Shown one piece after another: positions 3,031-20,759 of a DNA stretch of 64,000 nt. The stretch is taken from the NCBI GenBank assembly GCA_030246985.1, contig CP107246.1:372282-436281 (forward strand), given 5' to 3'. The notes below the pieces were generated by a model. It worked only from the letters and a program-made list of their open reading frames with translations, was not told the DNA's origin and did no database searches. This stretch comes from Candidatus Nitricoxidivorans perseverans (lineage in GTDB: Bacteria; Pseudomonadota; Gammaproteobacteria; Burkholderiales; Rhodocyclaceae). Position numbers and translations under genes: made by a program. The stretch's first letter is position 1. Each line of letters starts with the position of its first letter.

Positions 3031-3767
3031 ATGGAAACCAAACTCTCCGAAGCGATGCTGTTGGCCGGGCTGGCCGAGGAATCGCGCGTGGACGATCTGA
3101 GGGAAGCGCTCTCGGCGGCCGTCTTCCAGATGGAAGGCCCGGTCAATGTGATGGCCTCGGTGCTGGCCACCATGGAACGGCGCGGATGCTGCCATGGCGC
3201 CGGCTTCGCCATTGGCGAAGCCCTGGCCGCCGCCCGTGCCGCGGTGGCCACGCTTCGCGGCGCCATACCGGAACACCGGTGGGAAGCGCCGACGGCGGTC
3301 AATCTCAACGATATCCTGCGGGACGTGCTGCAACTGTCCACGTCGCGCCTTCTGGCCACCGGCATCACGGTCACCTGCCAGCCCCAGCCGGTGCTGCACT
3401 CCGTGGCCGGCTACCCCAACCGCCTGCGGGCCATGGTCAAGGCATTGGTGGACAACGCCATCGAGGCCATGGACGGCCGCGGATGGAAAACGCGGGAGCT
3501 GTTTCTCGCCACCGCCGCGGAGGATGGCCGCATCGAGCTGGTGATCGAGGACAGCGGGCCGGGCATTCCGCCCGCCCTGCGCCTGAAGGTTTTCGAGCCC
3601 TTCTATTCCACCCGCAAGGACGGCGGGCATCTCGGCACCGGCCTGGCCACCGCCCGCCAGATCGCCCTGGACCACGGCGGCGGCATCGATCTCGAACCGC
3701 GCGAGGCGGGCGGTTGCCGTGTGCGAGTGACGCTGCCCCTGCGCAACACCGTCGGGGATGGCGAATC

Positions 3768-3771
<4 letters not shown>
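3031..3771 (+). CDS. nifL: NifL-like anti-activator, short form (H-domain-like helix plus GHKL ATPase domain, no PAS domains)
   Basis: 246 aa. LREALSAAVFQMEGPVNVMASVLATMERRG resembles the NifL central helical region. GHKL motifs: VDNAIEAM (N box), EDSGPGI (G1), GTGLATARQIA (G2). ATGA overlap with the downstream nifA-like gene. Only 210 nt separate it from the divergent rnfA start, so upstream PAS domains cannot be encoded. Confidence 0.65.
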
Positions 3772-4694
<923 letters not shown>

Positions 4695-8326: not shown

Positions 8327-9214
8327 ATGATCCTCCGCGCCGAGGCCGCCTGGCTCGGCCTGGCGCTGGGCGACGCGCTGGGCGCCACGGTCGAGTTCAT
8401 GACGCCGCGCGAGATTCAAGCCCGGCACGGCATCCACCGGGAGCTGCGCGGCGGCGGCTGGCTGCGCCTGCGGCCCGGCCAGGTCACGGACGACACGACC
8501 ATGAGCCTGGCGCTGGGCGATGCCATCCTCGCCGACGGCGGGCGCGTCGAGCCGCTTTCATGCGCCCGCGCATTCGACGCATGGATGCGCGCCAAGCCCG
8601 TCGACATCGGCAACACGGTACGCCGCAACCTGATCCGGTTCCGCCGTACCGGCGAACCCGAGGCGCCGCCCTCGGAGCACGACGCCGGCAACGGCGCGGC
8701 GATGCGCGTGCTGCCCGTGGCGCTGGCCACGCTGGGGCGCGGCGAGAACGAAGTGCGCGCCGCCGTGCGCGCCCAGGCGCATGTCACGCACCACAACCCG
8801 GACTCCGACGCCGCCTGCGCGTTCCTCGCGCTCGCCGTGCGGGACGCCGTGCGCGGCGCGCGCCTGCCGGAGCTCTACCGACGGCGCATCCGGCCGTTCG
8901 TGGAAGCGCATCCGGGATTCGCCTTTCGTTCACGCCGCCGCGAGAATCCGAGCGGCTGGATCGTCGAGACGATGCAGGCCGTGCTCCAGGCCCTGCTCGA
9001 CACCGGCGGTTTCGAGGAATGCCTGACCGACGTCGTCAACCGCGGCGGCGACTCGGACACCACCGGCGCCATCGCCGGCATGCTCGCCGGCGCGCTCTAC
9101 GGCCCGGAAGCCCTGCCCCCGCGCTGGCTCAGGACGCTCGACGCGGGGATACGGGAGAATTGCCGCCGGCAGGCGCGGGAGTTGGTGTCAGGCGGGCTGA
9201 AGCGTTCAACGTGA
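8327..9214 (+). CDS. draG: DraG (ADP-ribosyl-[dinitrogenase reductase] glycohydrolase)
   Basis: 295 aa. LGLALGDALGATVEFMTPREIQARHGIHRELRGGGWLRLRPGQVTDDTTMSLALG, DAGNGAAMRVLP and GGDSDTTGAIAGMLAGALYG match DraG as remembered from Rhodospirillum. It starts 3 nt after the nifB stop. Confidence 0.85.
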   Translation: MILRAEAAWLGLALGDALGATVEFMTPREIQARHGIHRELRGGGWLRLRPGQVTDDTTMSLALGDAILADGGRVEPLSCARAFDAWMRAKPVDIGNTVRRNLIRFRRTGEPEAPPSEHDAGNGAAMRVLPVALATLGRGENEVRAAVRAQAHVTHHNPDSDAACAFLALAVRDAVRGARLPELYRRRIRPFVEAHPGFAFRSRRRENPSGWIVETMQAVLQALLDTGGFEECLTDVVNRGGDSDTTGAIAGMLAGALYGPEALPPRWLRTLDAGIRENCRRQARELVSGGLKRST

Positions 9215-9257
9215 TAATGACCACCCCCGCATATTCCGGATTGGCGTAACAGAACCC

Positions 9258-9815
9258 ATGGCGCTGAAATCAACCATCTTCAAGATCGAGCTGCAACTGG
9301 CGGACCTGGACCGCAACCGCTACCAGACCCATTCCCTGACCCTCGCGCGCCATCCCTCCGAGACCGACGAGCGGATGATGGTGCGGCTGATCGCCTTCGC
9401 CCTGCATGCAGATCCCGCCCTGGAATTCGGCAAGGGATTGTCAGCGGACGACGAGCCCGACCTGTGGCGCAAGGACCTGACCGGGACGATCGAGCAGTGG
9501 ATCGAGATCGGCCTGCCCGACGAAAAGCGGCTGCGCAAGGCCCGCGGCCGGGCCGCCGAAGTCTGCGTCGTGTCGTATGGCGGGCGCGCCGCCGATCTGT
9601 GGTGGGAACAGGGCCAGCCTGCGCTACGCAAGCTCGACAAGCTGTCGGTCATCAACCTGCCCGGTGATCAGACGAAATCGCTCGCGAGCCATGCGGTTCG
9701 CACCATGTCGATCAACTGCACGATCCAGGAAGGCGATCTCCTCCTGGTCATGGGCGAAGAGACGTTCCACCTCGTTCCCGAGTACCGATTGCGCCCATCG
9801 GGGTCGCGTCGGTAA
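9258..9815 (+). CDS. yaeQ: YaeQ family protein
   Basis: 185 aa. MALKSTIFKIELQLADLDRNRYQTHSLTLARHPSETDERMMVRLIAFAL... is the typical YaeQ N-terminus. Confidence 0.8.
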   Translation: MALKSTIFKIELQLADLDRNRYQTHSLTLARHPSETDERMMVRLIAFALHADPALEFGKGLSADDEPDLWRKDLTGTIEQWIEIGLPDEKRLRKARGRAAEVCVVSYGGRAADLWWEQGQPALRKLDKLSVINLPGDQTKSLASHAVRTMSINCTIQEGDLLLVMGEETFHLVPEYRLRPSGSRR

Positions 9816-10083: not shown

Positions 10084-10527
10084 TTAGCCATCGTCGTCCC
10101 CATCAAGCGATGCCATGGCTTCTTGTACCTGGGCCACAAGGCAGTCGGTCGCGGCGAGCAACTCGGTCAGCAACGCTTCGTCCACGTCCATATAGCCTTC
10201 GTATTCCGCCAGATTGCGGCGTTCATGGCACAGCGCAAACATCCGAACCTGGGCCTTGCTTGCGTCGATCGTGTGTATCAGGCACTGGAACACCAGATAG
10301 CGCCTGTCCGAACGGTAGCCTTGCAGGCGCAGCGCCGTCAGCGCCAGAGCATGGGCAGCGTTGTAGGCCAGGTCGAAACGGCTGGCGAAAGACAGTGCCG
10401 GGCTGTGGGCATCCTTCAGCCGGTCAATGGCGGAACGCAGCAAACCTTCGCACTCCTTGCGATCAGGTGGCTCCGTGTTGAGGCCACCGCTGCGCATCAG
10501 GTTTTCCAGGTTGTCTTTACCGCTCAT
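10084..10527 (-). CDS. HEPN-domain protein (putative toxin of a HEPN/MNT pair)
   Basis: 147 aa, helical, with an ERRNLAEYEG motif (R-x4-Y/H type HEPN signature). It overlaps the upstream nucleotidyltransferase gene by 11 nt. Confidence 0.55.
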   Translation of the reverse strand: MSGKDNLENLMRSGGLNTEPPDRKECEGLLRSAIDRLKDAHSPALSFASRFDLAYNAAHALALTALRLQGYRSDRRYLVFQCLIHTIDASKAQVRMFALCHERRNLAEYEGYMDVDEALLTELLAATDCLVAQVQEAMASLDGDDDG

Positions 10528-11122
10528 TGCCGGGTTCCCCTGGCGGCGGCCCGCCGATCAGGTCGATCCTGTCCTGCCCTGACACCCGCACGACGAAGCT
10601 GTTGCCGGCGGCCTTCTTCGCCAGCCAGTCGACCGGAGTGTAGATCGTCGGGTTGATGCTGCGCCCCAAACGCTCTTCCGCAGGCAACAAGGTTTCCACC
10701 ACGTCGCCGTAGCCGATGTCCTCGCCGATCAGCATCAGGTCTATATCGCTGCCGGCATGATCCGATCCCTTGGCGATGGAGCCGTAGACGAAGGCCCACA
10801 CCAACTGCCTGGCCAAGGGCGCCAACGCGGCGCGCAAAACCTCGCCGATACCGAAGGTCTTGCGTACGATGCCCAATAGTTCCCCAAAGATCGGGCATTC
10901 GGGATTGGCCTGGTAATGGGTCTGGTTGCCCTGACGGCTCATGGTCAGCACGCCGGCTCTATGCAGCCGGTCCAGCTCGCGCATCAGGCTTCCCTTGCCG
11001 ACCTGTGCCCAGCGAGCGATTTCGTTGACGTAGAAGCTCTGATCGGGCTTGCCATAAAGCAGGCCCAGCACCTTCTGCTGTGTCCCGGTGAACAAGGCGT
11101 CACTGAGCGGCTGTGTTTTCAT
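10517..11122 (-). CDS. wHTH-fused minimal nucleotidyltransferase (MNT-type putative antitoxin)
   Basis: 201 aa. N-terminal winged-helix segment (SFYVNEIARWAQVGKGSLMRELDRLHRAGVL). NTase motif VYGSIAKGSDHAGSDIDLMLIG (GS-x9-11-DxD). Confidence 0.65.
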   Translation of the reverse strand: MKTQPLSDALFTGTQQKVLGLLYGKPDQSFYVNEIARWAQVGKGSLMRELDRLHRAGVLTMSRQGNQTHYQANPECPIFGELLGIVRKTFGIGEVLRAALAPLARQLVWAFVYGSIAKGSDHAGSDIDLMLIGEDIGYGDVVETLLPAEERLGRSINPTIYTPVDWLAKKAAGNSFVVRVSGQDRIDLIGGPPPGEPGNER

Positions 11123-11243: not shown

Positions 11244-12128
11244 CTACAGCGTCCCGACCGCGACCTCGTAGGCGCCGCCGATGACCAGGTGCTCGCCCTC
11301 GCCCTTGAGCACGCCGGGCGTCAGCCCGCAGTGGAAGAAGACCTTGGCCGTCGGCACATCGGCCTCGATGATCCAGTCGCCGAATTCGCCGGCGCGTTCG
11401 CGCGAGCTGGTGAATGAGGCGAGGTTGTTGAACAGGACGACCTGGCGCCTGCCGTTTCCGCTCAGGACTTCGTGTTCGTCGATGCGGTTGATGCCGCGAT
11501 ACAAAGTCAGCCGTGGCTGCGCGCCGAGCCGTGCGAACTCGCGCTGGCACCAGGCGTAGAGCAGGTCGAGCTGGCCCTCGATGGCGTTGGTGCCGCTGAC
11601 GCCGGCCGCGCGCATGCTCTCGTAGCGATGCCAGGCGGGGCCGGTGAAGTCGCGCAGCGGATCAATGTGGAAGCGCGGCACGAGGCCGAAGCGCGACTCC
11701 ACCCAGCCCTTGAGCGCGGCGCCCTCGCGGCTGTCCGAGTCGAAGCTCCAGCCGCGCAGCATGCGCAGCCAGTTGGCCTTGGCGCGTTTATGCGTGTGCG
11801 CGTCGAGGCCCGCGTCTTCCAGGCTGTCCAGGCAGAAGTGCGCGGCGAGCCCCTCGCGGAACAGCCGCGCGCGCTCGTGCGCGTCGTCCTCGCGATCGAG
11901 CAGCGCGAAGAGCCCCGCGTGCAGCTCCTCGACGCCGTCGAGCCTGAGCGCGGTCGGGTGCCGCTGGAAGGTGACGCTGCCCAGGATCACCGCCGGCAGG
12001 TTGCAGCGGTTGATGGGCAGGCGAGCCCAGGAAGGCAGCGAGGGGGCCGGATTGTCGGGACTGTGACAAACGCCGGGCGCTTTGTCGGATGCGGACGGAG
12101 GGGGCGGCTCGGCGTTTAGTTCTGTCAT
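11244..12128 (-). CDS. draT: DraT (NAD+--dinitrogenase reductase ADP-D-ribosyltransferase)
   Basis: 294 aa. NLPAVILGSVTFQRHPTALRLDGVEELHAGLFALLD and the C-terminal GEGEHLVIGGAYEV match DraT as remembered. Divergent from nifH, as in Azospirillum and Rhodospirillum. Confidence 0.8.
   Translation of the reverse strand: MTELNAEPPPPSASDKAPGVCHSPDNPAPSLPSWARLPINRCNLPAVILGSVTFQRHPTALRLDGVEELHAGLFALLDREDDAHERARLFREGLAAHFCLDSLEDAGLDAHTHKRAKANWLRMLRGWSFDSDSREGAALKGWVESRFGLVPRFHIDPLRDFTGPAWHRYESMRAAGVSGTNAIEGQLDLLYAWCQREFARLGAQPRLTLYRGINRIDEHEVLSGNGRRQVVLFNNLASFTSSRERAGEFGDWIIEADVPTAKVFFHCGLTPGVLKGEGEHLVIGGAYEVAVGTL
12053..12068. promoter_or_regulatory. NifA UAS (TGT-N10-ACA) upstream of nifH, inside the draT 5' coding region
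   Basis: TGTCGGGACTGTGACA read directly, about 100 bp upstream of the nifH -24/-12 motif. Confidence 0.65.
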
Positions 12129-12156: not shown

Positions 12157-12172
12157 TGGCACGCTCCTTGCC
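12157..12172 (+). promoter_or_regulatory. sigma54 promoter of nifH (TGGCAC-N5-TTGCC)
   Basis: TGGCACGCTCCTTGCC. About a 50-nt leader to the nifH ATG, with a GGAGA RBS. Confidence 0.8.
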
Positions 12173-12217: not shown

Positions 12218-13111
<894 letters not shown>

Positions 13112-13121
13112 GGAGAATGAC

Positions 13122-14570
13122 ATGCCCGCATTGACCCGCGAGGAAACCCAGGCCCTCATCGAAGAGGTGATCGAGGTCTATCCCGAGAAGGCGAAGAAGG
13201 ACCGCGCCAAGCACCTGATGGTCAACGACGTCACGCTGGAGTCGTCGAAGAAGTGCATCACCTCCAACCGCAAGTCGCTGCCGGGCGTGATGACCATGCG
13301 CGGCTGCGCCTACGCCGGCTCCAAGGGCGTCGTATGGGGCCCGATCAAGGACATGATCTCGATCTCCCACGGCCCCATCGGCTGCGGCCAGTACGCCCGC
13401 GGCGGGCGCCGCAACTACTACGTCGGCGCCACCGGCGTCGACGCGTTCAGCGAGCTCAACTTCACCTCGGATTTCCAGGAGAAGGACATCGTTTTCGGCG
13501 GCGACAAGAAACTCGCCAAGCTCATCAACGAGATCGAGACGCTCTTTCCGCTGAACAAGGGCATCTCGGTGCAGTCCGAATGCCCCGTCGGCCTGATCGG
13601 CGACGACATCGAGGCGGTGTCGAAGAAGGCCGCCGCCGAGATCGGCAAGCCCGTGGTGCCCGTGCGCTGCGAGGGCTTCCGCGGCGTTTCGCAGTCGCTC
13701 GGCCACCACATCGCCAACGATTCGGTGCGCGACTGGATCCTCTCCAACCGCGACGGCCGGCCGTTCGAGAAGACGCCCTACGACGTGGCCATCCTCGGCG
13801 ACTACAACATCGGCGGCGACGCCTGGGCTTCGCGCATCCTGCTCGAAGAGATGGGTCTGCGCGTCGTGGCGCAATGGTCGGGCGACGGCACGCTGGCGGA
13901 GATGGAGAACACGCCCAACGTCAAGCTCAACCTCCTCCATTGCTACCGCTCGATGAACTACATCAGCCGGCTCATGGAGGAGAAGTACGGCATTCCCTGG
14001 CTCGAATACAACTTCTTCGGCCCGACCAAGATCGCCGAAAGCTTGCGCGCCATCGCCGCCCGCTTCGACGACCGCATCAAGGAAGGCGCCGAGCGCGTGA
14101 TCGAGAAATACACGCCGGCGATGGACGCGATCATCGCCAAGTACAAGCCGCGTCTGCAAGGCAGGAAGGTGATGCTCTACGTCGGCGGCCTGCGCCCGCG
14201 CCACGTGGTCGGCGCCTACGAAGACCTGGGCATGGAAGTGATCGGCACGGGCTACGAGTTCGCCCACAGCGACGACTACGACCGCACGATCAAGGACGTT
14301 GGCGACGCGACGCTGATCTACGACGACGCCACCGGCCACGAGCTCGATGAGTTCGTGAAGGCCATGAAGCCCGACCTGATCGGCTCCGGTATCAAGGAGA
14401 AGTACGTCTTCCACAAGATGGGCTTCCCGTTTCGCCAGATGCATTCCTGGGACTACTCGGGGCCTTACCACGGCTACGACGGCTTCGCGGTCTTCGCCAA
14501 GGACATGGACCTGACGCTCAACAACCCGTGCTGGAAGATGCTCGCGCCGCCGTGGAAGAAGGCCGCCTGA
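13122..14570 (+). CDS. nifD: NifD (Mo-nitrogenase MoFe protein alpha chain)
   Basis: 482 aa. [66 protein letters not shown] and HCYRSMNY (FeMo-co Cys context). Confidence 0.97.
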
Positions 14571-14623
14571 GCAGACCCCGTGCCCGCCACGATGTTCGAT
14601 TCCACACCATAAGGAGAAACACC

Positions 14624-16537
14624 ATGAACGGTTCCTCGGATGCCCGCGTCGTCGAAGCCGCCGGCGCCAGTTGCGGCAGTGTCCACGCCTCGGTGCGCGA
14701 GATGGCCATGTTCCTCGACACGCGCAATGTCCGCACCTTCCTGCAGCGCAACGCCGAGCAGGGAACCTGCAAGCACGGGGAGCTGGGCGTCTGCTGCACG
14801 CTGTGCCCCGACGGCCCCTGCCGCATCCGCGAAAACGCGACCCGGGGCCGCTGCGGCATCGACGCCGACGGCATCGCCGCGCGCAACCTGCTGCGCCTGG
14901 TGAACCAGGGCGGCGCGGCCTACACCCACGACTTCAAGCACAGCATCGCCACGCTGCGCGCGGCCGCCCGCGGCGAGGGCGGCTTCCGCCTGCGCGACGA
15001 GGCCAAGCTGCGCTGGTTCGCCGGCGTCCTCGGCGTGGCCGGCGAGGGCCTGGGCGCGGCCGAGCTGGGCCTGCGCGTGGCCGATGCGCTGGAAGACGAA
15101 TTCCGCAAGGACGTGCATCAGCCGCTCGACCTGGTGCGCAACCTCGCGCCGGCGAGCCGTCTGCAAGTGTGGCGGACGCTGGGCGTCGTGCCCGGCGGCT
15201 ACCTGCACGAGGCGCACGAGGCCGGCGCCAAGGTGATGCCGAACATCGACACCGACTACGTCGACCTCTCGCTGACGGCGCTGCGCCTGGCCATCTCGGC
15301 CGGCTTCCTCGGCAACATCGCCACCTCGGTCATGCGCGACATCGTGCTCGGCTCGCCCGACATCACCGAGGGCGAGGCCGACCTCGGCGTGCTCGATCCG
15401 GCCTGCGTGAACATCATCCTGCACGGCCATGTGCCCTGGATGGGCGCAACCGTCGGCCGGCTGGCCAGGGAAGAGCGATTCCAGGCGCGGGCGCGCGCCG
15501 CCGGCGCCGCCGGCATCAAGGTCTACGGCAGCCTGTGCACCGGCCAGGAGCTGGCGCAGCGGCCGGACACCGCCCAATACCTCGACGGTCAGGTGGGCAA
15601 CTGGCTCTCCCAGGAATTCGTCGCCGCCACCGGCGTCGCCGACCTGTTCGTGATGGAGAAGAACTGCTCGGCGCCGGGGCTGCCGGCGGTGATCGAGCAG
15701 CTCAAGCTGCACACCCGGCTGGTGCCGGTCAACCCGGCCGTGCGCCTGCGCGGCGTCGCCGCCGACGCGTCCCTCGACTATGCGCCGGAGCGGGCGGAAG
15801 CCCAGGCGGAAAAGCTGATCGCCATGGCGATCGAGGCCTACGGCCGGCGCGATCCGGCCTATGCGCCGCGCGTGCCCGCCCACAAGACGCCCTACATCGC
15901 CGGCTTCGGCGTCGAGAGCGTGCTCAAGGCCCTCGGCGGCAGCCCGCAGCCGCTGCTGGACGCCATCGGCAACGGCACCCTCAAGGGCGTCGTCGGCCTG
16001 GTGAGCTGCGTCACCGCCAAGACCGGCGCCGGCGGCTTCCTCACCCGCTTCCTCGAGGAACTGCTGGCCCAGGACGTGCTGGTGCTGGTGGCCGGCTGCG
16101 CCTCCTCCACCGCCCAGATCGAAGGCTTCATGAACGGCGCGGCGGTGGAACGCTACGCCGGGCCGGGCCTGAAACAGGTCTGCCAGGCGCTCGGCATCCC
16201 GCCGGCGCTGAACTTCGGCTCCTGTCTGGACACCGGCCGCATGGCGCTGTTGATCCTCGCGCTCGCCGATTACCTGAAGGTCGATCCGACCAAGCTGCCG
16301 GTGGTCGCCGCCGCGCCCGAGTATTACAACAACGACGCGCTGATCGACGGCCTGCTGGCGGTGTCGCTGGGCATCAACACCTACGTCAATCCGGTTCCCC
16401 CCGTCACCGGCGGCGCCGACCTGACCAAGCTGCTCACCCAGGACCTGGACGGCCTGCTCGGCGCCCGCTTCCTGGTGGAGGCGGATCCGGTGCTGGCGGC
16501 CGGCAAGGTGGTGGAAGCCCTGTCGGCCCGCCATTGA
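14624..16537 (+). CDS. cooS: CooS-family (anaerobic Ni,Fe CO dehydrogenase catalytic subunit-like) protein encoded between nifD and nifK
   Basis: 637 aa, taken from ATG 14624 (AAGGAGA RBS) within ORF 14528..16537. It is colinear with C. hydrogenoformans CODH-II as remembered. N-terminal C-x7-CC-x2-C-x4-C...C (CKHGELGVCCTLCPDGPCR...RCG). Also NIILHGHVP, GIKVYGSLCTGQE, VMEKNCSAPG, LVSCVT, LVAGCASS, NFGSCLDTGR and LPVVAAAPE. Confidence 0.85.
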   Translation: MNGSSDARVVEAAGASCGSVHASVREMAMFLDTRNVRTFLQRNAEQGTCKHGELGVCCTLCPDGPCRIRENATRGRCGIDADGIAARNLLRLVNQGGAAYTHDFKHSIATLRAAARGEGGFRLRDEAKLRWFAGVLGVAGEGLGAAELGLRVADALEDEFRKDVHQPLDLVRNLAPASRLQVWRTLGVVPGGYLHEAHEAGAKVMPNIDTDYVDLSLTALRLAISAGFLGNIATSVMRDIVLGSPDITEGEADLGVLDPACVNIILHGHVPWMGATVGRLAREERFQARARAAGAAGIKVYGSLCTGQELAQRPDTAQYLDGQVGNWLSQEFVAATGVADLFVMEKNCSAPGLPAVIEQLKLHTRLVPVNPAVRLRGVAADASLDYAPERAEAQAEKLIAMAIEAYGRRDPAYAPRVPAHKTPYIAGFGVESVLKALGGSPQPLLDAIGNGTLKGVVGLVSCVTAKTGAGGFLTRFLEELLAQDVLVLVAGCASSTAQIEGFMNGAAVERYAGPGLKQVCQALGIPPALNFGSCLDTGRMALLILALADYLKVDPTKLPVVAAAPEYYNNDALIDGLLAVSLGINTYVNPVPPVTGGADLTKLLTQDLDGLLGARFLVEADPVLAAGKVVEALSARH

Positions 16538-16554
16538 TTGCAAAGGAGAGAGAG

Positions 16555-18123
16555 ATGCAAACCGCAGAAGAGATCAAACCGTGCTTCCCGCTGTTCCGGG
16601 ACGACGACTACAAGGACATGATCGCCCGAAAGCGCGAGACGTTCGAGGAAGTCCACGGCAGGGACAAGATCGCCGACACATTCGCCTGGACGACCACGAA
16701 GGAATACCAGGAGCTCAACTTCAAGCGCGAGGCGCTGACCGTCAACCCGGCCAAGGCCTGCCAGCCCCTCGGCTCCGCCCTGTGCGGCTTGGGATTCCAC
16801 AAGACCCTGGTGTACATCCACGGCTCGCAGGGTTGCGTCGCCTACTTCCGCACCTACTTCAACCGCCATTTCAAGGAGCCCATCGCTCTCATCGCCGACT
16901 CGATGACGGAAGACGCGGCGGTTTTCGGCGGCCAGAAGAACGTCCATGAAGGCTTGGCCAACGCCAAGGCGCTCTACGGAGCCGAGATGATCGCGATGTC
17001 GACGACCTGCATCGCCGAGGTCATCGGCGACGACCTGAACGCCTTCATCGGCAACGCCCGCAAGGAAGGCCACGTACCCATGGACTTCCCGATCCCCTTC
17101 GCCCATACGCCGAGCTTCGTCGGCTCCCACGTCACCGGCTGGGACAATATGGAGGAGGGCATCCTGCGCTATTTCACGCTGAACGGCATGGAGGGCAAGG
17201 CGCCGGGATCGAACGGCAAGATCAACCTCGTGCCGGGCTTCGAGACCTACCTGGGCAACTACCGCGTGATGAAGCGCTACATGAAGGAGATGGGCGTCGA
17301 CGCCACGATGCTCTCCGATCCCGAGGAAGTGCTCGACACGCCGGCCGACGGCGAATTCCGCATGTACGCCGGCGGCACGACGCAGGAAGAGGTCAAGGAC
17401 GCGCCCAACGCCCACACCACCTTCCTGCTCCAGCCGATGGGCCTCGACAAGACCAGGAAGTTCGTCGAGGGCACATGGAACCACGAGGTGCCCAAGCTCG
17501 ACATCCCGATGGGCGTCGAGTGGACCGACGCGTTCCTGATGAAGGTGTCGGAAGTCACCGGCAAGCCGATCCCCGCTTCGCTGGCGCTGGAGCGCGGCCG
17601 CCTGATCGACATGATGACCGACTCCCACGCCTGGCTGCACGGCAGGAAGATGGCGCTCTACGGCGATCCGGACTTCACGCTGGGCATGGTCAAGATGCTC
17701 ATGGAGTTCGGTGTCGAGCCGACGCACGTCGTCTGCCACAACGGCGGCAAGAAGTGGGCGAAGGCGATGGAGAAGCTGCTGGCTTCCAGCCCCTACGGCG
17801 CTTCCGGCCGCGCGTATCCGAGCGCCGATCTGTGGCACCTGCGCAGCCTGTGCTTCACCGACAAGCCCGACTTCCTTATCGGAAACAGCTACGGCAAGTT
17901 CATCCAGCGCGACACGCGGCACAAGGGCCCGGAGTTCGAGGTGCCGCTGATCCGCATCGGCTTCCCGATCTTCGACCGGCACCATCTGCACCGCCAGACG
18001 ACGCTGGGCTACGAAGGCGCGATGCAGGTGCTGACGACGCTGACCAACGCGGTGCTCGATCGCCTGGACGACCAGACGCGCGGCATGGGCACCACGGACT
18101 ACAACCACGATCTGGTGAGGTAA
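16555..18123 (+). CDS. nifK: NifK (Mo-nitrogenase MoFe protein beta chain)
   Basis: Last 522 aa of ORF 14671..18123. MQTAEEIKPCFPLFRDDDYKDMIARKRETFEE..., ACQPLGSALCGLGF, IHGSQGCVAYFR and C-terminal TDYNHDLVR. GGAGAG RBS upstream. Confidence 0.97.
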   Translation: MQTAEEIKPCFPLFRDDDYKDMIARKRETFEEVHGRDKIADTFAWTTTKEYQELNFKREALTVNPAKACQPLGSALCGLGFHKTLVYIHGSQGCVAYFRTYFNRHFKEPIALIADSMTEDAAVFGGQKNVHEGLANAKALYGAEMIAMSTTCIAEVIGDDLNAFIGNARKEGHVPMDFPIPFAHTPSFVGSHVTGWDNMEEGILRYFTLNGMEGKAPGSNGKINLVPGFETYLGNYRVMKRYMKEMGVDATMLSDPEEVLDTPADGEFRMYAGGTTQEEVKDAPNAHTTFLLQPMGLDKTRKFVEGTWNHEVPKLDIPMGVEWTDAFLMKVSEVTGKPIPASLALERGRLIDMMTDSHAWLHGRKMALYGDPDFTLGMVKMLMEFGVEPTHVVCHNGGKKWAKAMEKLLASSPYGASGRAYPSADLWHLRSLCFTDKPDFLIGNSYGKFIQRDTRHKGPEFEVPLIRIGFPIFDRHHLHRQTTLGYEGAMQVLTTLTNAVLDRLDDQTRGMGTTDYNHDLVR

Positions 18124-18134
18124 AGGAAGACATC

Positions 18135-18332
18135 ATGGCAATGAAAATCGTACAAGCGGAATGCTCGTCCTGCGGCGACTGCGTGCCGGTATGCGCCACA
18201 AAATCGATCACCGACAAGGGCGGCGTCTTCAAGATCAACAAGGAGACCTGCACCGAGTGCGAGGGCGAGGCCGACTCGCCCAAGTGCGTCGATGTCTGCC
18301 CGGCCGGCGATGCCTGCATCGTCTACGTCTGA
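18135..18332 (+). CDS. Small 2x[4Fe-4S] ferredoxin co-transcribed with nifHDK
   Basis: 65 aa at the end of ORF 17475..18332. MAMKIVQAECSSCGDCVPVCA... with a CxxCxxCxxxC motif and CTECEGEADSPKCVDVCP. It starts 11 nt after the nifK stop. Confidence 0.8.
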   Translation: MAMKIVQAECSSCGDCVPVCATKSITDKGGVFKINKETCTECEGEADSPKCVDVCPAGDACIVYV

Positions 18333-18341
18333 GGAGGCGCC

Positions 18342-18746
18342 ATGCGCGGATCGATCCTTGCCGCCTGCGCCTCGAACGAAGGTGAAATGCTCGACGGCCA
18401 TTTCGGTTCCTGCGAGCGGTTCCTGATCTACGAGGTCGGCGCGGAGGAATCGCGGCTCGTCGCCGTGCGTCCGGCGCCCGGTGACGACGGCACCTCCGCG
18501 CGCGTCCGGCTCGTCGCCGACTGCCAAGTGGTGTTCCTCCAGTCCATCGGCGGGCCGGCGGCGGCGAAGGTGGTGCGCGCCGGCGTGCATCCGGTGAAAG
18601 TGCCGAAGATCGGGCCGGCGGCGGAAACCCTGGCGAGGCTCCGGGAGTCGCTGAAAAGCCCGCCGCCCTGGCTGGCCAAGGCCATGGGCGTCGAGGCGGC
18701 CTCGCTCGCGCCCTTCCGCGAACTCGCCGGGGCCGGACCGGCGTGA
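18342..18746 (+). CDS. NifX/NifY/NafY-family (dinitrogenase FeMo-cofactor-binding domain) protein
   Basis: 134 aa. ILAACASNEGEMLDGHFGSCERFLIYEV...VFLQSIGGPAAAKVVRAGVHPVKV is the pattern of the NifB/NifX-type cofactor-binding fold. Its position after nifK matches nifY. Confidence 0.7.
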   Translation: MRGSILAACASNEGEMLDGHFGSCERFLIYEVGAEESRLVAVRPAPGDDGTSARVRLVADCQVVFLQSIGGPAAAKVVRAGVHPVKVPKIGPAAETLARLRESLKSPPPWLAKAMGVEAASLAPFRELAGAGPA

Positions 18747-19618: not shown

Positions 19619-19921
19619 TCAACGTCCTTCTCCCCGCTTCAACCGTCCCTGCGCCTTGCGATACACCGCGCTGTCCTCGCGTTTGCCGATGGCGACGACC
19701 ACGACCACCACGCGTGCGTCAAACACCTGATACACCAGCCGGTAGCCGGCGGCGCGCAGCTTGATCTTGTAGCAGTCGGGCATGCCGGCAAGCCGCGCGG
19801 ATTCGACATGGGGATTTTCCAGGCGTTCGGCCAGGCGGGCCTTGAACTGCTCGCGCATGCCCCGGTCGAGCTTCTGCCACTCCTTCCAGGCGCTGTCGCG
19901 GAATTCGAGGCTATAGCGCAT
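19619..19921 (-). CDS. relE: RelE/ParE-family toxin
   Basis: 100 aa. MRYSLEFRDSAWKEWQKLDRGMREQFKARLAERLENP...YRLVYQVFDARVVVVVVAIGKRE is typical RelE/StbE. It overlaps the antitoxin gene by 11 nt. Confidence 0.85.
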   Translation of the reverse strand: MRYSLEFRDSAWKEWQKLDRGMREQFKARLAERLENPHVESARLAGMPDCYKIKLRAAGYRLVYQVFDARVVVVVVAIGKREDSAVYRKAQGRLKRGEGR

Positions 19922-20171
19922 CGAGCGCGACTTCCACCGTCGGTTCGTTTTCGCGCTCCTTGACCAGCCGGGCGAGTTCGTAGTCGTCGAGCTTTTCCAT
20001 CAGGGCCTCGAAGGCCGCAGAGGGCACGAGATAGGCCGCCGGCCTGTTGCGATTGAGCACCGCGACGGGAAAACCGTCCGCCTCTTCGATCACGGCGGAG
20101 GGGTTCTTCTTCAGCTCGCTGATGCTGATCGAGGCGTTGGTATAGAGCAGTTCCATGATCGCGTCCCTCAT
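19911..20171 (-). CDS. Phd/YefM-RelB-type antitoxin
   Basis: 86 aa. ISISELKKNPSAVIEEADGFPVAVLNRNRPAAYLVP is a Phd/YefM-type N-terminus. Located directly upstream of relE. Confidence 0.8.
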   Translation of the reverse strand: MRDAIMELLYTNASISISELKKNPSAVIEEADGFPVAVLNRNRPAAYLVPSAAFEALMEKLDDYELARLVKERENEPTVEVALDAL

Positions 20172-20216
20172 GACCGATTAAACGGTCTCTATTGTAGTCT
20201 CGCCAGGCGACCGGCG

Positions 20217-20660
20217 CTACAACCTCCTTCGCCGTACCGTCATGGCCGATTTTTCGAAGCCCAGCCGCTCGTAGAAGGCCAGCGCAGGCGCGTTATCGCG
20301 GTCGGCGAGCAGGGTGACGCGCGGCATGCCCTCGGCCTTCGCCCATTCGCAGACGTGTTCGACCAGCTTGCGGCCGAGGCCCTTGCCGCGATGGGCGCGG
20401 CTCACGATCACGTCCTCCAGCAGCAGTACGCGGCAGCCCTCGGCGGTGCTGACGGTGAAGAGGGCGTTGGCCATGCCCGCGACCTTCCCGCCGACGCGCA
20501 GCACGAAGAGCCGGCCGATGCCGGGATCGTCGAGGATGAGGCGCAGCCCGGCGAGCTGCTTCCCACGGTCGGGGGCGAAGTCGCTTTCGAGGGCGAAGAG
20601 TTCGCGGAGCAGGTCGGCCAGAGCCGGCAGGTCCGCTTCCGTGGCGGGGTCGATGGTCAT
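20217..20660 (-). CDS. GNAT family N-acetyltransferase
   Basis: 147 aa from MTIDPATEADL... (ATG 20660 within ORF 20217..20723). Acetyl-CoA motif RAHRGKGLGRKLVE and ...AFYERLGF. Confidence 0.8.
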   Translation of the reverse strand: MTIDPATEADLPALADLLRELFALESDFAPDRGKQLAGLRLILDDPGIGRLFVLRVGGKVAGMANALFTVSTAEGCRVLLLEDVIVSRAHRGKGLGRKLVEHVCEWAKAEGMPRVTLLADRDNAPALAFYERLGFEKSAMTVRRRRL

Positions 20661-20759
20661 TCCGGGGCGAAGTATAGGTCGGCGAGCACGATGTCGGAAA
20701 TCGGCGTCCACACGGACGTGCATGCGCTGCTGGCCGCAGCCCCTGCCCCGGATACTTTT

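Follow-up and report, generated by a model that had tools for sequence, protein, structure and literature searches.

A CooS-like gene of clade D lies between nifD and nifK in the nitrogenase operon of 'Candidatus Nitricoxidivorans perseverans'

In 'Candidatus Nitricoxidivorans perseverans', the nitrogenase genes nifD and nifK are separated by a gene that encodes a homolog of CooS, the catalytic subunit of anaerobic carbon monoxide dehydrogenase (CODH). The stretch analysed here, referred to as the window, comprises 64,000 nt of contig CP107246.1, and all positions are given in window numbering. The map of open reading frames (ORFs) and the sequence place four genes head to tail in the order nifH-nifD-cooS-like-nifK; the products NifH, NifD, the CODH-like protein and NifK are WIM06077-WIM06080. 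The host is the dominant member of a nitric oxide (NO)-respiring enrichment from wastewater sludge in Bremen and belongs to the Sterolibacteriaceae, Betaproteobacteria (PMC10390337). It is highly probable that the gene was inserted between nifD and nifK and captured by the operon. As judged from its sequence, the encoded protein belongs to clade D of the CODH family as a new structural variant and is not a demonstrable CO dehydrogenase.

Two things appear to be new: a nif operon with an accessory gene of this kind embedded in it, and a structural subgroup among the clade-D CODH homologs that has not been described before. A preliminary description of the locus, made from the sequence alone, stated that no described nifD-cooS-nifK arrangement was known to its author. 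We found no paper that discusses one, but the arrangement is already present in the GenBank annotation and in Table S5 of Garrido-Amador et al. 2023, where the gene is listed under 'Nitrogenase gene cluster' as 'Carbon monoxide dehydrogenase 1' without comment (PMC10390337). The main text of that paper mentions neither nitrogenase nor CODH (PMC10390337). No paper that links CODH to nif operons was found in the literature, and two surveys of the genomic context of Ni-CODHs are silent on nitrogenase.

The interval between nifD and nifK

The two genes that flank the insert are complete nitrogenase genes. nifD (13122-14570, + strand) encodes the full-length alpha chain of the MoFe protein (482 aa; TIGR01282, 856.8 bits, covering positions 1-466 of 466 of the hidden Markov model, HMM), and nifK (16555-18123, + strand) encodes the beta chain (522 aa; TIGR01286, 844.5 bits). 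The distance from nifD to nifK is 1,984 nt and is occupied by the cooS-like gene (14624-16537, + strand; 637 aa; WIM06079, OHM77_01955), which ends with a stop codon at 16535-16537. The direct adjacency of nifD and nifK that is usual in a nifHDK operon is therefore absent, while the nifH, nifD and nifK equivalogs do stand behind a NifA upstream activator sequence (UAS) and a sigma-54 promoter. A gap of 53 nt (14571-14623, + strand) separates nifD from the insert and contains the ribosome-binding site (RBS) AAGGAG at 14611-14616, 8 nt before the ATG. The gap on the other side (16538-16554, + strand) is 17 nt long and contains the RBS of nifK, AAGGAG, at 16543-16548. The end of nifD at 14570, the limits of the ORF, the start of nifK at 16555 and the strong RBS all agree exactly with the preliminary description. 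An alternative GTG start at 14528 would give a longer ORF but is not used in the homologs, all of which align from the ATG at 14624. Shortening of nifD by the insertion was considered and rejected, as the same short C-terminus (...PPWKKAA) is seen in relatives that lack the insert. The G+C content of the insert had been described as equal to that of its neighbours, which does not hold: the insert has 71.4% G+C overall, compared with 63.5–64.8% for nifH, nifD and nifK. Only the third-position G+C matches between the insert and its nif neighbours (92–94%).

Both junctions are supported by two separate assemblies. The source genome is one closed circular contig (CP107246), and the genome study of the organism also used PacBio long reads (PMC10390337). 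A separately assembled Logan contig, L017 (SRR8426592, 2,351 bp), contains the complete insert, flanked by the end of nifD and the beginning of nifK. It shares 98.6% nucleotide identity with the window, and its nifD/cooS and cooS/nifK junctions are identical to those of the window. Because its insert differs from the window copy by 31 substitutions, L017 represents a different strain. An assembly chimera, a danger pointed out in the preliminary description, is rejected, as the junctions are present in L017 and in the closed genome alike. More broadly, an artefact of assembly or binning would fit the origin of the source as a metagenome-assembled genome and the raised overall G+C of the insert. 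Such a chimeric join is nonetheless close to inconceivable, given that an independent run spans both junctions with a diverged insert, that the long-read study yielded a single circle, and that the third-position G+C of the insert equals that of its neighbours.

Relatives and origin of the insert

The closest sampled relative without the insert, L031 (NifD 88% identical), has the gene order nifH-nifD-nifK-nifT-fdx-nifY and a nifD-nifK spacer of 64 nt. The first ~20 nt of this spacer resemble the start of the 53-nt gap in the window, and the last ~20 nt, which include the nifK RBS, are similar to the 17-nt gap. For the inner ~30 nt of the 53-nt gap, the similarity is to the 5´ untranslated region (5´UTR) and RBS of stand-alone homologs. 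Alignments as short as these suggest an insertion into the spacer without being decisive.

L017 has nif flanks, but the other eight clusters of close homologs (P0002-P0009; ten loci, L013-L016, L018-L020 and L028-L030) have none. In each of the ten loci the gene is monocistronic, and its neighbours are unrelated and often divergent. The genes that flank L013 are at least 90% identical to proteins of Rhodocyclaceae, Sulfurisoma and Dechloromonas, which are of the same order as the source organism. An exact TTGAY-N4-RTCAA box is located 76–84 nt 5´ of the ATG, in an AT-rich promoter, in nine of the ten stand-alone loci, and the tenth (L013) has a near-match that is a one-off variant of the box. 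A conserved TAAAAAAAT element follows ~25 nt 3´ of the box, and the whole layout is that of a class II FNR/DNR-dependent promoter. Boxes of the FNR/DNR type are typical of denitrification and anaerobic regulons. No TTGAY-N4-RTCAA box occurs anywhere in the 64-kb window. The alignment also reveals conserved TGTCG...ACAA...TTGTC repeats 60–150 nt 5´ of the FNR-type box (L013, L015, L016, L018-L020 and L028-L030), which suggests that a second regulator may act on the stand-alone promoters.

More distant members of the family are likewise solitary. The copy in Hydrogenisulfobacillus adjoins a divergent regulator gene of the Crp/Fnr family. In the Aquificota, a sigma-54 consensus (TGGYAY-N5-TTGCW) is present 53–211 nt upstream of the gene in 14 of 16 loci (L001-L005, L007-L009, L011 and L021-L025; Persephonella and Aquificaceae), and an FNR box was looked for upstream of the Aquificota homologs and not found. 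Expression of the Aquificota copies would accordingly depend on an enhancer-binding protein, and a regulation that is conserved across phyla is rejected, since these copies have sigma-54 promoters instead of the FNR box. A scan of genome contigs returned only 12 Aquificota loci, none of which has nif genes within 6 kb, and a scan of metagenome contigs added three loci of the Aquificota type. Altogether, 10 stand-alone proteobacterial, ~16 Aquificota and 2 Hydrogenisulfobacillus loci are unlinked to nif, and linkage is confined to one lineage, seen in two samples. A search for the same synteny in relatives, as suggested in the preliminary description, thus extends the arrangement to a second strain, L017, but no further: the other relatives found are stand-alone genes with promoters of their own. 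The stand-alone orthologs are tightly regulated genes of anaerobic, H2-oxidising or N-oxide-respiring bacteria.

No insertion sequence (IS), transposase, integrase or meaningful terminal repeat was found in the region of the insert. An 8-bp direct repeat, GCCCGCCA (14582-14589 and 16526-16533), is located near both ends of the insert and could represent microhomology used in the insertion; it is one of 39 comparable chance repeat families in 2.3 kb of GC-rich DNA and is statistically unremarkable. Insertion by a mobile element was rejected in view of the missing IS and integrase and of a repeat that is within chance.

Promoters and operon structure

The nifH promoter consists of a sigma-54 element, TGGCACGCTCCTTGCC (12157-12172, + strand), which has one mismatch to TGGCAC-N5-TTGCW and lies 49 nt 5´ of the nifH ATG, and of a NifA UAS (TGT-N10-ACA; 12053-12068, + strand; motif scan). 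It precedes nifH (12221-13111, + strand), which encodes the nitrogenase Fe protein (296 aa; TIGR01287, 474.7 bits; identical to WIM06077). The + strand of the window contains only five TGT-N10-ACA sites, and three of them stand just 5´ of sigma-54 matches, namely those of nifB (6759/6815), nifH (12053/12157) and nifE (20760/20819). From the nifH promoter to the end of nifK, no further sigma-54 or sigma-70 promoter, UAS or terminator was found on the + strand. Neither the 53-nt and 17-nt gaps nor the interior of the ORF yielded a sigma-70-like promoter, a terminator, a sigma-54 promoter or a NifA UAS, and the earlier remark that the gaps contain no promoter or terminator is borne out by these scans. 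An internal nifK promoter was rejected: the single candidate is a sigma-54-like site with two mismatches at 16065, which has no UAS, and matches of this quality occur at chance level (25 found, 27.6 expected). The nifH promoter thus appears to be the only recognisable promoter for nifH-nifD-cooS-nifK. As nifK seems to have no promoter of its own, it must presumably be transcribed through the insert. To judge from this promoter layout, expression of the operon that holds the cooS-like gene should be limited to times of nitrogenase synthesis. In the only published transcriptome, which is of a culture with 1 mM ammonium, nifH, nifD, cooS and nifK have 53, 87, 41.75 and 88 reads per kilobase per million (RPKM), respectively (PMC10390337, Table S5). 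All nif genes and the insert are at background in this culture, and the proteome contains no Nif protein and no CooS-like protein (PMC10390337).

We propose that a stand-alone gene for a clade-D CooS-like protein was inserted mid-way in a nifD-nifK spacer of ~64 nt in the lineage of 'Ca. Nitricoxidivorans perseverans'. The insert would have brought ~30 nt of 5´UTR with the RBS, the coding sequence and the stop codon, but no promoter, and because it came without a promoter the gene would now be under the nifH promoter. Control of the FNR/DNR type would have been exchanged for control by NifA and sigma-54, which looks like a rewiring, specific to this lineage, that brought the gene into the NifA regulon. 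The transcript from the nifH promoter would comprise nifH-nifD-cooS-nifK-fdx, and the output of nifK would rely on read-through.

Family, fold and active-site pocket of the CooS-like protein

The assignment of the protein to the CooS/Prismane family, made in the preliminary description, is well founded. The protein scores 418.7 bits with PF03063 and 612.8 bits with TIGR01702 (anaerobic CODH catalytic subunit; residues 19–636), for which the curated cutoff is 478 bits. The AlphaFold2 (AF2) model (predicted local distance difference test 91.1; predicted template-modelling score 0.92) has the predicted CODH fold, with Foldseek template-modelling (TM) scores of 0.91–0.95 to CooS-V, DvCODH, TcCODH, CODH-IV and CODH-II. 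Membership in Hcp was rejected, as NF003658 (21.7 bits, cutoff 367) and TIGR01703 (20.8 bits, cutoff 361) give local C-terminal matches only.

The metal ligands were compared with those of CODH-II, using a reference that is identical in sequence to PDB 1su6. The D-cluster cysteines C49 and C57 align to C39 and C47 of CODH-II, and the B-cluster cysteines C58, C61, C66 and C77 align to C48, C51, C56 and C70. The C-cluster ligands H269, C305, C348, C462, C492 and C534 align to H261, C295, C333, C446, C476 and C526, respectively. All twelve residues are those that the preliminary description had named, at the positions that it gave. The D-cluster is of type II, as in the ferredoxin-reducing CODHs.

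The pocket around the C-cluster is different. According to the alignment, the acid-base catalysts His93 and Lys563 of CODH-II are replaced by Tyr100 and Asp571, His96 of the His tunnel is replaced by Asp103, and Ile567, which is located over the Ni site, is replaced by Asp575. His561 of CODH-II, a position at which CooS-V and the hybrid cluster protein (HCP) have a Glu ligand of the hybrid cluster, corresponds to Asn569. The protein therefore has the fold, the HMM score and the ligands of the CooS family but lacks the acid-base catalysts of CooS-type CODHs. The Tyr/Asp/Asn/Asp/Asp signature shows no variation in a monophyletic group of 27 sequences (58–100% identity), which comprises the window protein, nine Rhodocyclales-type sequences (77–99%), Aquificota such as Persephonella (60–64%) and Ca. 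Hydrogenisulfobacillus (58%). In the next tier, at ~47% identity (Thermanaeromonas and others; group D-3 of Inoue), the corresponding residues are Tyr/His/Glu/Lys/Asp. None of the 24 structural groups in Table 2 of Inoue 2019 has Asp at the Lys position, and the Tyr/Asp signature fits none of them. In a neighbour-joining tree, which is distance-based and has no bootstrap, the subclade groups with CooS-V-like and D-3-like sequences, away from CODH-II and TcCODH.

The N-terminus distinguishes the nif-embedded copies from their relatives. The stand-alone relatives have a C-x3-C-x5-C motif, of which both embedded copies keep a single Cys (C17). Such a motif of three N-terminal cysteines defines group D-3 (Inoue 2019), and a role as metallochaperone has been speculated for the motif. 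In the same region (residues 1–17, 14624-14674), DNA similarity to relatives begins only at about codons 15–36, depending on the relative.

Clade D is described as being without CO/CO2 interconversion (PMC13056359), and in Inoue 2019, which cites Kim 2004 and Jeon 2005, mutation of the acid-base His or Lys is stated to lower CO oxidation. In true CODHs, the carboxylate on Ni and the hydroxide on Fe are probably stabilised by His93 and Lys563, an effect that is not expected of an Asp/Tyr pocket; canonical CO/CO2 chemistry is therefore unlikely. The protein would thus not be a canonical CO dehydrogenase. A working Ni,Fe CO dehydrogenase, made together with nitrogenase, could in principle oxidise CO, which potently inhibits N2 reduction, and possibly return the electrons to ferredoxin. 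This explanation draws on the TIGR01702 score above the curated cutoff, on the complete C-, B- and D-cluster ligands, including Cys305 (Cys295 of CODH-II), which is lost in CooS-V, and on a modelled fold that is near-identical to those of active CODHs (TM 0.91–0.93). Moreover, the host has [NiFe] hydrogenases and hence takes up nickel, a ferredoxin gene comes after nifK, and the shielding of nitrogenase from CO is a known need, for which CowN is an example. We nevertheless regard it as improbable, since His93 and Lys563 are exchanged for Tyr and Asp, and His96 and Ile567 for Asp, throughout the subclade, and a carboxylate intermediate on Ni should be disfavoured in the acidic pocket that results. 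The reported lack of CO/CO2 activity in clade D argues in the same direction. No cooC, cooF, cooA, hydrogenase or acetyl-CoA synthase (ACS) partner gene was found in the 64-kb window or beside the homologs examined, and the stand-alone homologs, with their FNR-type or sigma-54 promoters, have no link to genes for CO or C1 metabolism. The replaced catalysts and the missing cooC, cooF and cooA in the window weaken the idea of CO scavenging, which the preliminary description had raised as an attractive possibility.

A role as formate dehydrogenase was set aside as unlikely. The authors of the source-organism study report no identifiable formate dehydrogenase in the closed genome, although the culture grows on formate (PMC10390337). 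The cooS-like gene is at background and its product is absent from the proteome during formate oxidation, which makes it an unlikely candidate for the missing enzyme.

Possible functions of the embedded gene

The two nif-embedded copies (window and L017) differ by 20 synonymous and 11 non-synonymous changes, with a ratio of non-synonymous to synonymous rates (dN/dS) of 0.20, and the ratio to the stand-alone orthologs is 0.14–0.38. The cooS-like gene is intact and under purifying selection. This bears on the reading that illegitimate recombination placed a promoter-less anaerobic-stress gene in the nifD-nifK spacer, where it is tolerated as a neutral or slightly deleterious passenger. The restriction of the arrangement to one lineage would fit a passenger, as the other family members are unlinked to nif, and so would the loss of the motif of three N-terminal cysteines in the embedded copies and the lack of mobile-element hallmarks or meaningful terminal repeats. 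The nif island also looks rearranged, with truncated NifL and NifA, no nifT, and toxin-antitoxin and GNAT genes between its operons. On the other hand, the ORF is intact in two diverged strains at a dN/dS as low as that among the stand-alone orthologs, the metal ligands and the subclade-specific pocket residues are all kept, and the insert is tidy, with a strong RBS of its own and the RBS of nifK preserved. In addition, no second, stand-alone close copy from this genome is among the homologs found, a search that did not include a scan of the full genome. A mere passenger is, on balance, rather unlikely.

A second possibility is that the protein is a redox module of nitrogenase and not a catalyst for a small substrate: its B and D clusters would relay electrons at low potential or sense the redox state. 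Both clusters are intact, the D-cluster is of type II, a ferredoxin gene is nearby and an rnf cluster belongs to the same island; a 2026 context study in eLife mentions 'redox sensing properties' for clade-D CODHs. We consider such a redox module very improbable. The pocket residues are strictly conserved across phyla, which favours a substrate site over a mere wire, the nitrogenase of close relatives works without the protein, and the role has no precedent.

A protective scavenger or reductase is the reading that we favour, tentatively and at somewhat less than even chances. The ferredoxin pool of nitrogenase would supply the CooS-like protein with low-potential electrons, and the protein would spend these on the removal of a nitrogenase inhibitor, a small diatomic or N-O species, at the time when the enzyme is made. 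Nitrogenase is inactivated by NO. An NO- or hydroxylamine-type species seems a likelier substrate than CO, given that NO is what the host lives on and that the ancestral promoter is of the denitrification or anaerobic type. In its fullest form, the proposal is that an unrecognised clade-D group, with all C-cluster ligands set in a pocket of one Tyr and three Asp, removes a nitrogenase poison (NO or another N-O species, or CO in a non-canonical way) and has become a hard-wired guardian of nitrogenase. This complete version is doubtful.

Several points weigh against the protective role. CooS-V gave no detectable NO reduction. The window protein does not share the hybrid-cluster ligands of CooS-V and HCP, as Glu is replaced by Cys at position 295 and by Asn at position 561, and the analogy to HCP is therefore weak. 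The full set of C-cluster ligands could instead hold a Ni-containing, CO-reactive cluster. The other family members are unlinked to nif, and the function of the family is therefore not nif-specific. The FNR box is a signal of general anaerobiosis and is not specific for NO. Decay of the N-terminal Cys motif in the embedded copies could reflect relaxed constraint. Finally, co-expression of the insert with the nif genes is a prediction, because the sole condition studied is ammonium-fed, with the insert, like the other nif genes, at background RPKM and its product undetected in the proteome.

The arrangement is of interest in either case. Here a clade-D gene, whose product has a pocket signature not described before, has left a regulon of the FNR/DNR type for the structural operon of nitrogenase, which gives a testable physiological hypothesis (protection or support of nitrogenase) and a condition, N2 fixation, under which the protein can be sought. 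It hints at how an NO-respiring diazotroph might shield an enzyme that is sensitive to NO and CO, and a guardian role, if true, would provide the first physiological handle on the clade-D CODH homologs. The locus would also be a rare natural case in which nifK is expressed through a foreign gene of 1.9 kb. Should the gene be only a passenger, it would still be a clean example of a promoter-less gene captured in a highly conserved operon. The finding rests on one lineage, and the CO-scavenger rationale from which it started is weakened.

The nif island around the cooS-like gene

Downstream of nifK, the operon continues with a small 2x[4Fe-4S] ferredoxin gene (18135-18332, + strand), which is an ordinary part of nif clusters and occurs in insert-free relatives as well, and with a gene for a nifX/nifY-like FeMo-cofactor-binding protein (18342-18746, + strand; TIGR02663, 91 bits). 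nifT is absent from the window, and the ferredoxin gene directly follows nifK (18123-18135); L031 has nifT at this place (9203-9424). The regulators of the island are short. NifL (3031-3771, 246 aa) matches only positions 263–493 of the NifL model and has a HATPase_c domain but no PAS domains, and in NifA (3768-4694, 308 aa) a GAF domain is missing, while the sigma-54 AAA+ and HTH_8 domains are present. Because both lack their N-terminal sensor halves, regulation of the nif island may be unusual.

Other genes are interspersed among the nif operons. A RelE/YafN-type toxin-antitoxin pair and a GNAT acetyltransferase gene are located on the - strand at 19619-20723, between the nifY-like genes and nifENX, and a nucleotidyltransferase-type pair is located on the - strand at 10084-11122, between draG and draT. 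A gene for a DDE transposase (PF01609; 40303-41988) separates the nif island from an exopolysaccharide/exosortase cluster (EpsH, EpsF). The G+C content of the window drops to 54–57% from about 56 kb to 64 kb.

Comparison with known systems

The clade-D CooS homologs are widespread and, in the current view of the field, have one characterised member, CooS-V, and no CO/CO2 activity (PMC13056359). CooS-V of C. hydrogenoformans (clade D, group D-1; PDB 7b7q/7b9a) is the best match of the window protein both by sequence (449 bits) and by fold (TM 0.93–0.95, 38–39% identity). The two proteins share the Tyr at the position of His93 and the Asp at that of Ile567, and both belong to a gene family that is typically stand-alone, without neighbours from C1 metabolism. 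CooS-V has no CO/CO2 activity and reduces hydroxylamine slowly. Its cluster is an Fe-S-O hybrid cluster, with Glu instead of Cys295 and a further Glu at position 561; it keeps Lys563, has a D-cluster region of type III (S/R at C47) and is not linked to nif. In contrast, the window protein retains Cys305 and a type II D-cluster and has Asn569 and Asp571. The Glu residues that mark the hybrid cluster of group D-1, one in place of Cys295 and one two residues before Lys563, are thus missing from it, while its placement in clade D and Tyr100 are shared.

Groups D-3 and D-4 (Inoue 2019; Thermanaeromonas, Carboxydocella and Methanoperedens) contain the next-nearest sequences (~47% identity), and none of their members has been characterised biochemically. 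They resemble the window protein in the type II D-cluster, the complete C-cluster ligands and the Tyr in place of the acid-base His, and the three N-terminal cysteines of D-3 also occur in relatives of the window protein. However, these groups keep Lys563, His96 and Glu561, where the window subclade has Asp, Asp and Asn. With Asp in place of Lys and a single N-terminal Cys (C17), the window protein falls outside D-3, although its D-cluster type, C-cluster and Tyr do fit.

The canonical CooS CODHs of clades E and F (CODH-II, R. rubrum CooS and the enzymes of D. vulgaris and Thermococcus) have the same fold (TM 0.91–0.93) and the same B-, C- and D-cluster ligands. They are only 31–35% identical to the window protein, in which His93, Lys563, His96 and Ile567 are all replaced and near which CooC, CooF, hydrogenase and ACS partners are not encoded.

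CowN, which protects Mo-nitrogenase from CO, is a functional analogy to the CO-scavenging idea of the preliminary description, as a nif-regulated accessory factor that is proposed to shield nitrogenase from a gaseous inhibitor. It is a small non-metalloprotein unrelated to CooS, which binds nitrogenase, does not consume CO and is encoded outside nifHDK.

The adjacency of nifD and nifK is usual but not absolute, because several cyanobacteria have genes inserted between them (PMC8071049). No case from the CODH family is reported among these insertions (PMC8071049); here, by comparison, the host is a betaproteobacterium, and a single gene lies between nifD and nifK with the RBSs preserved.

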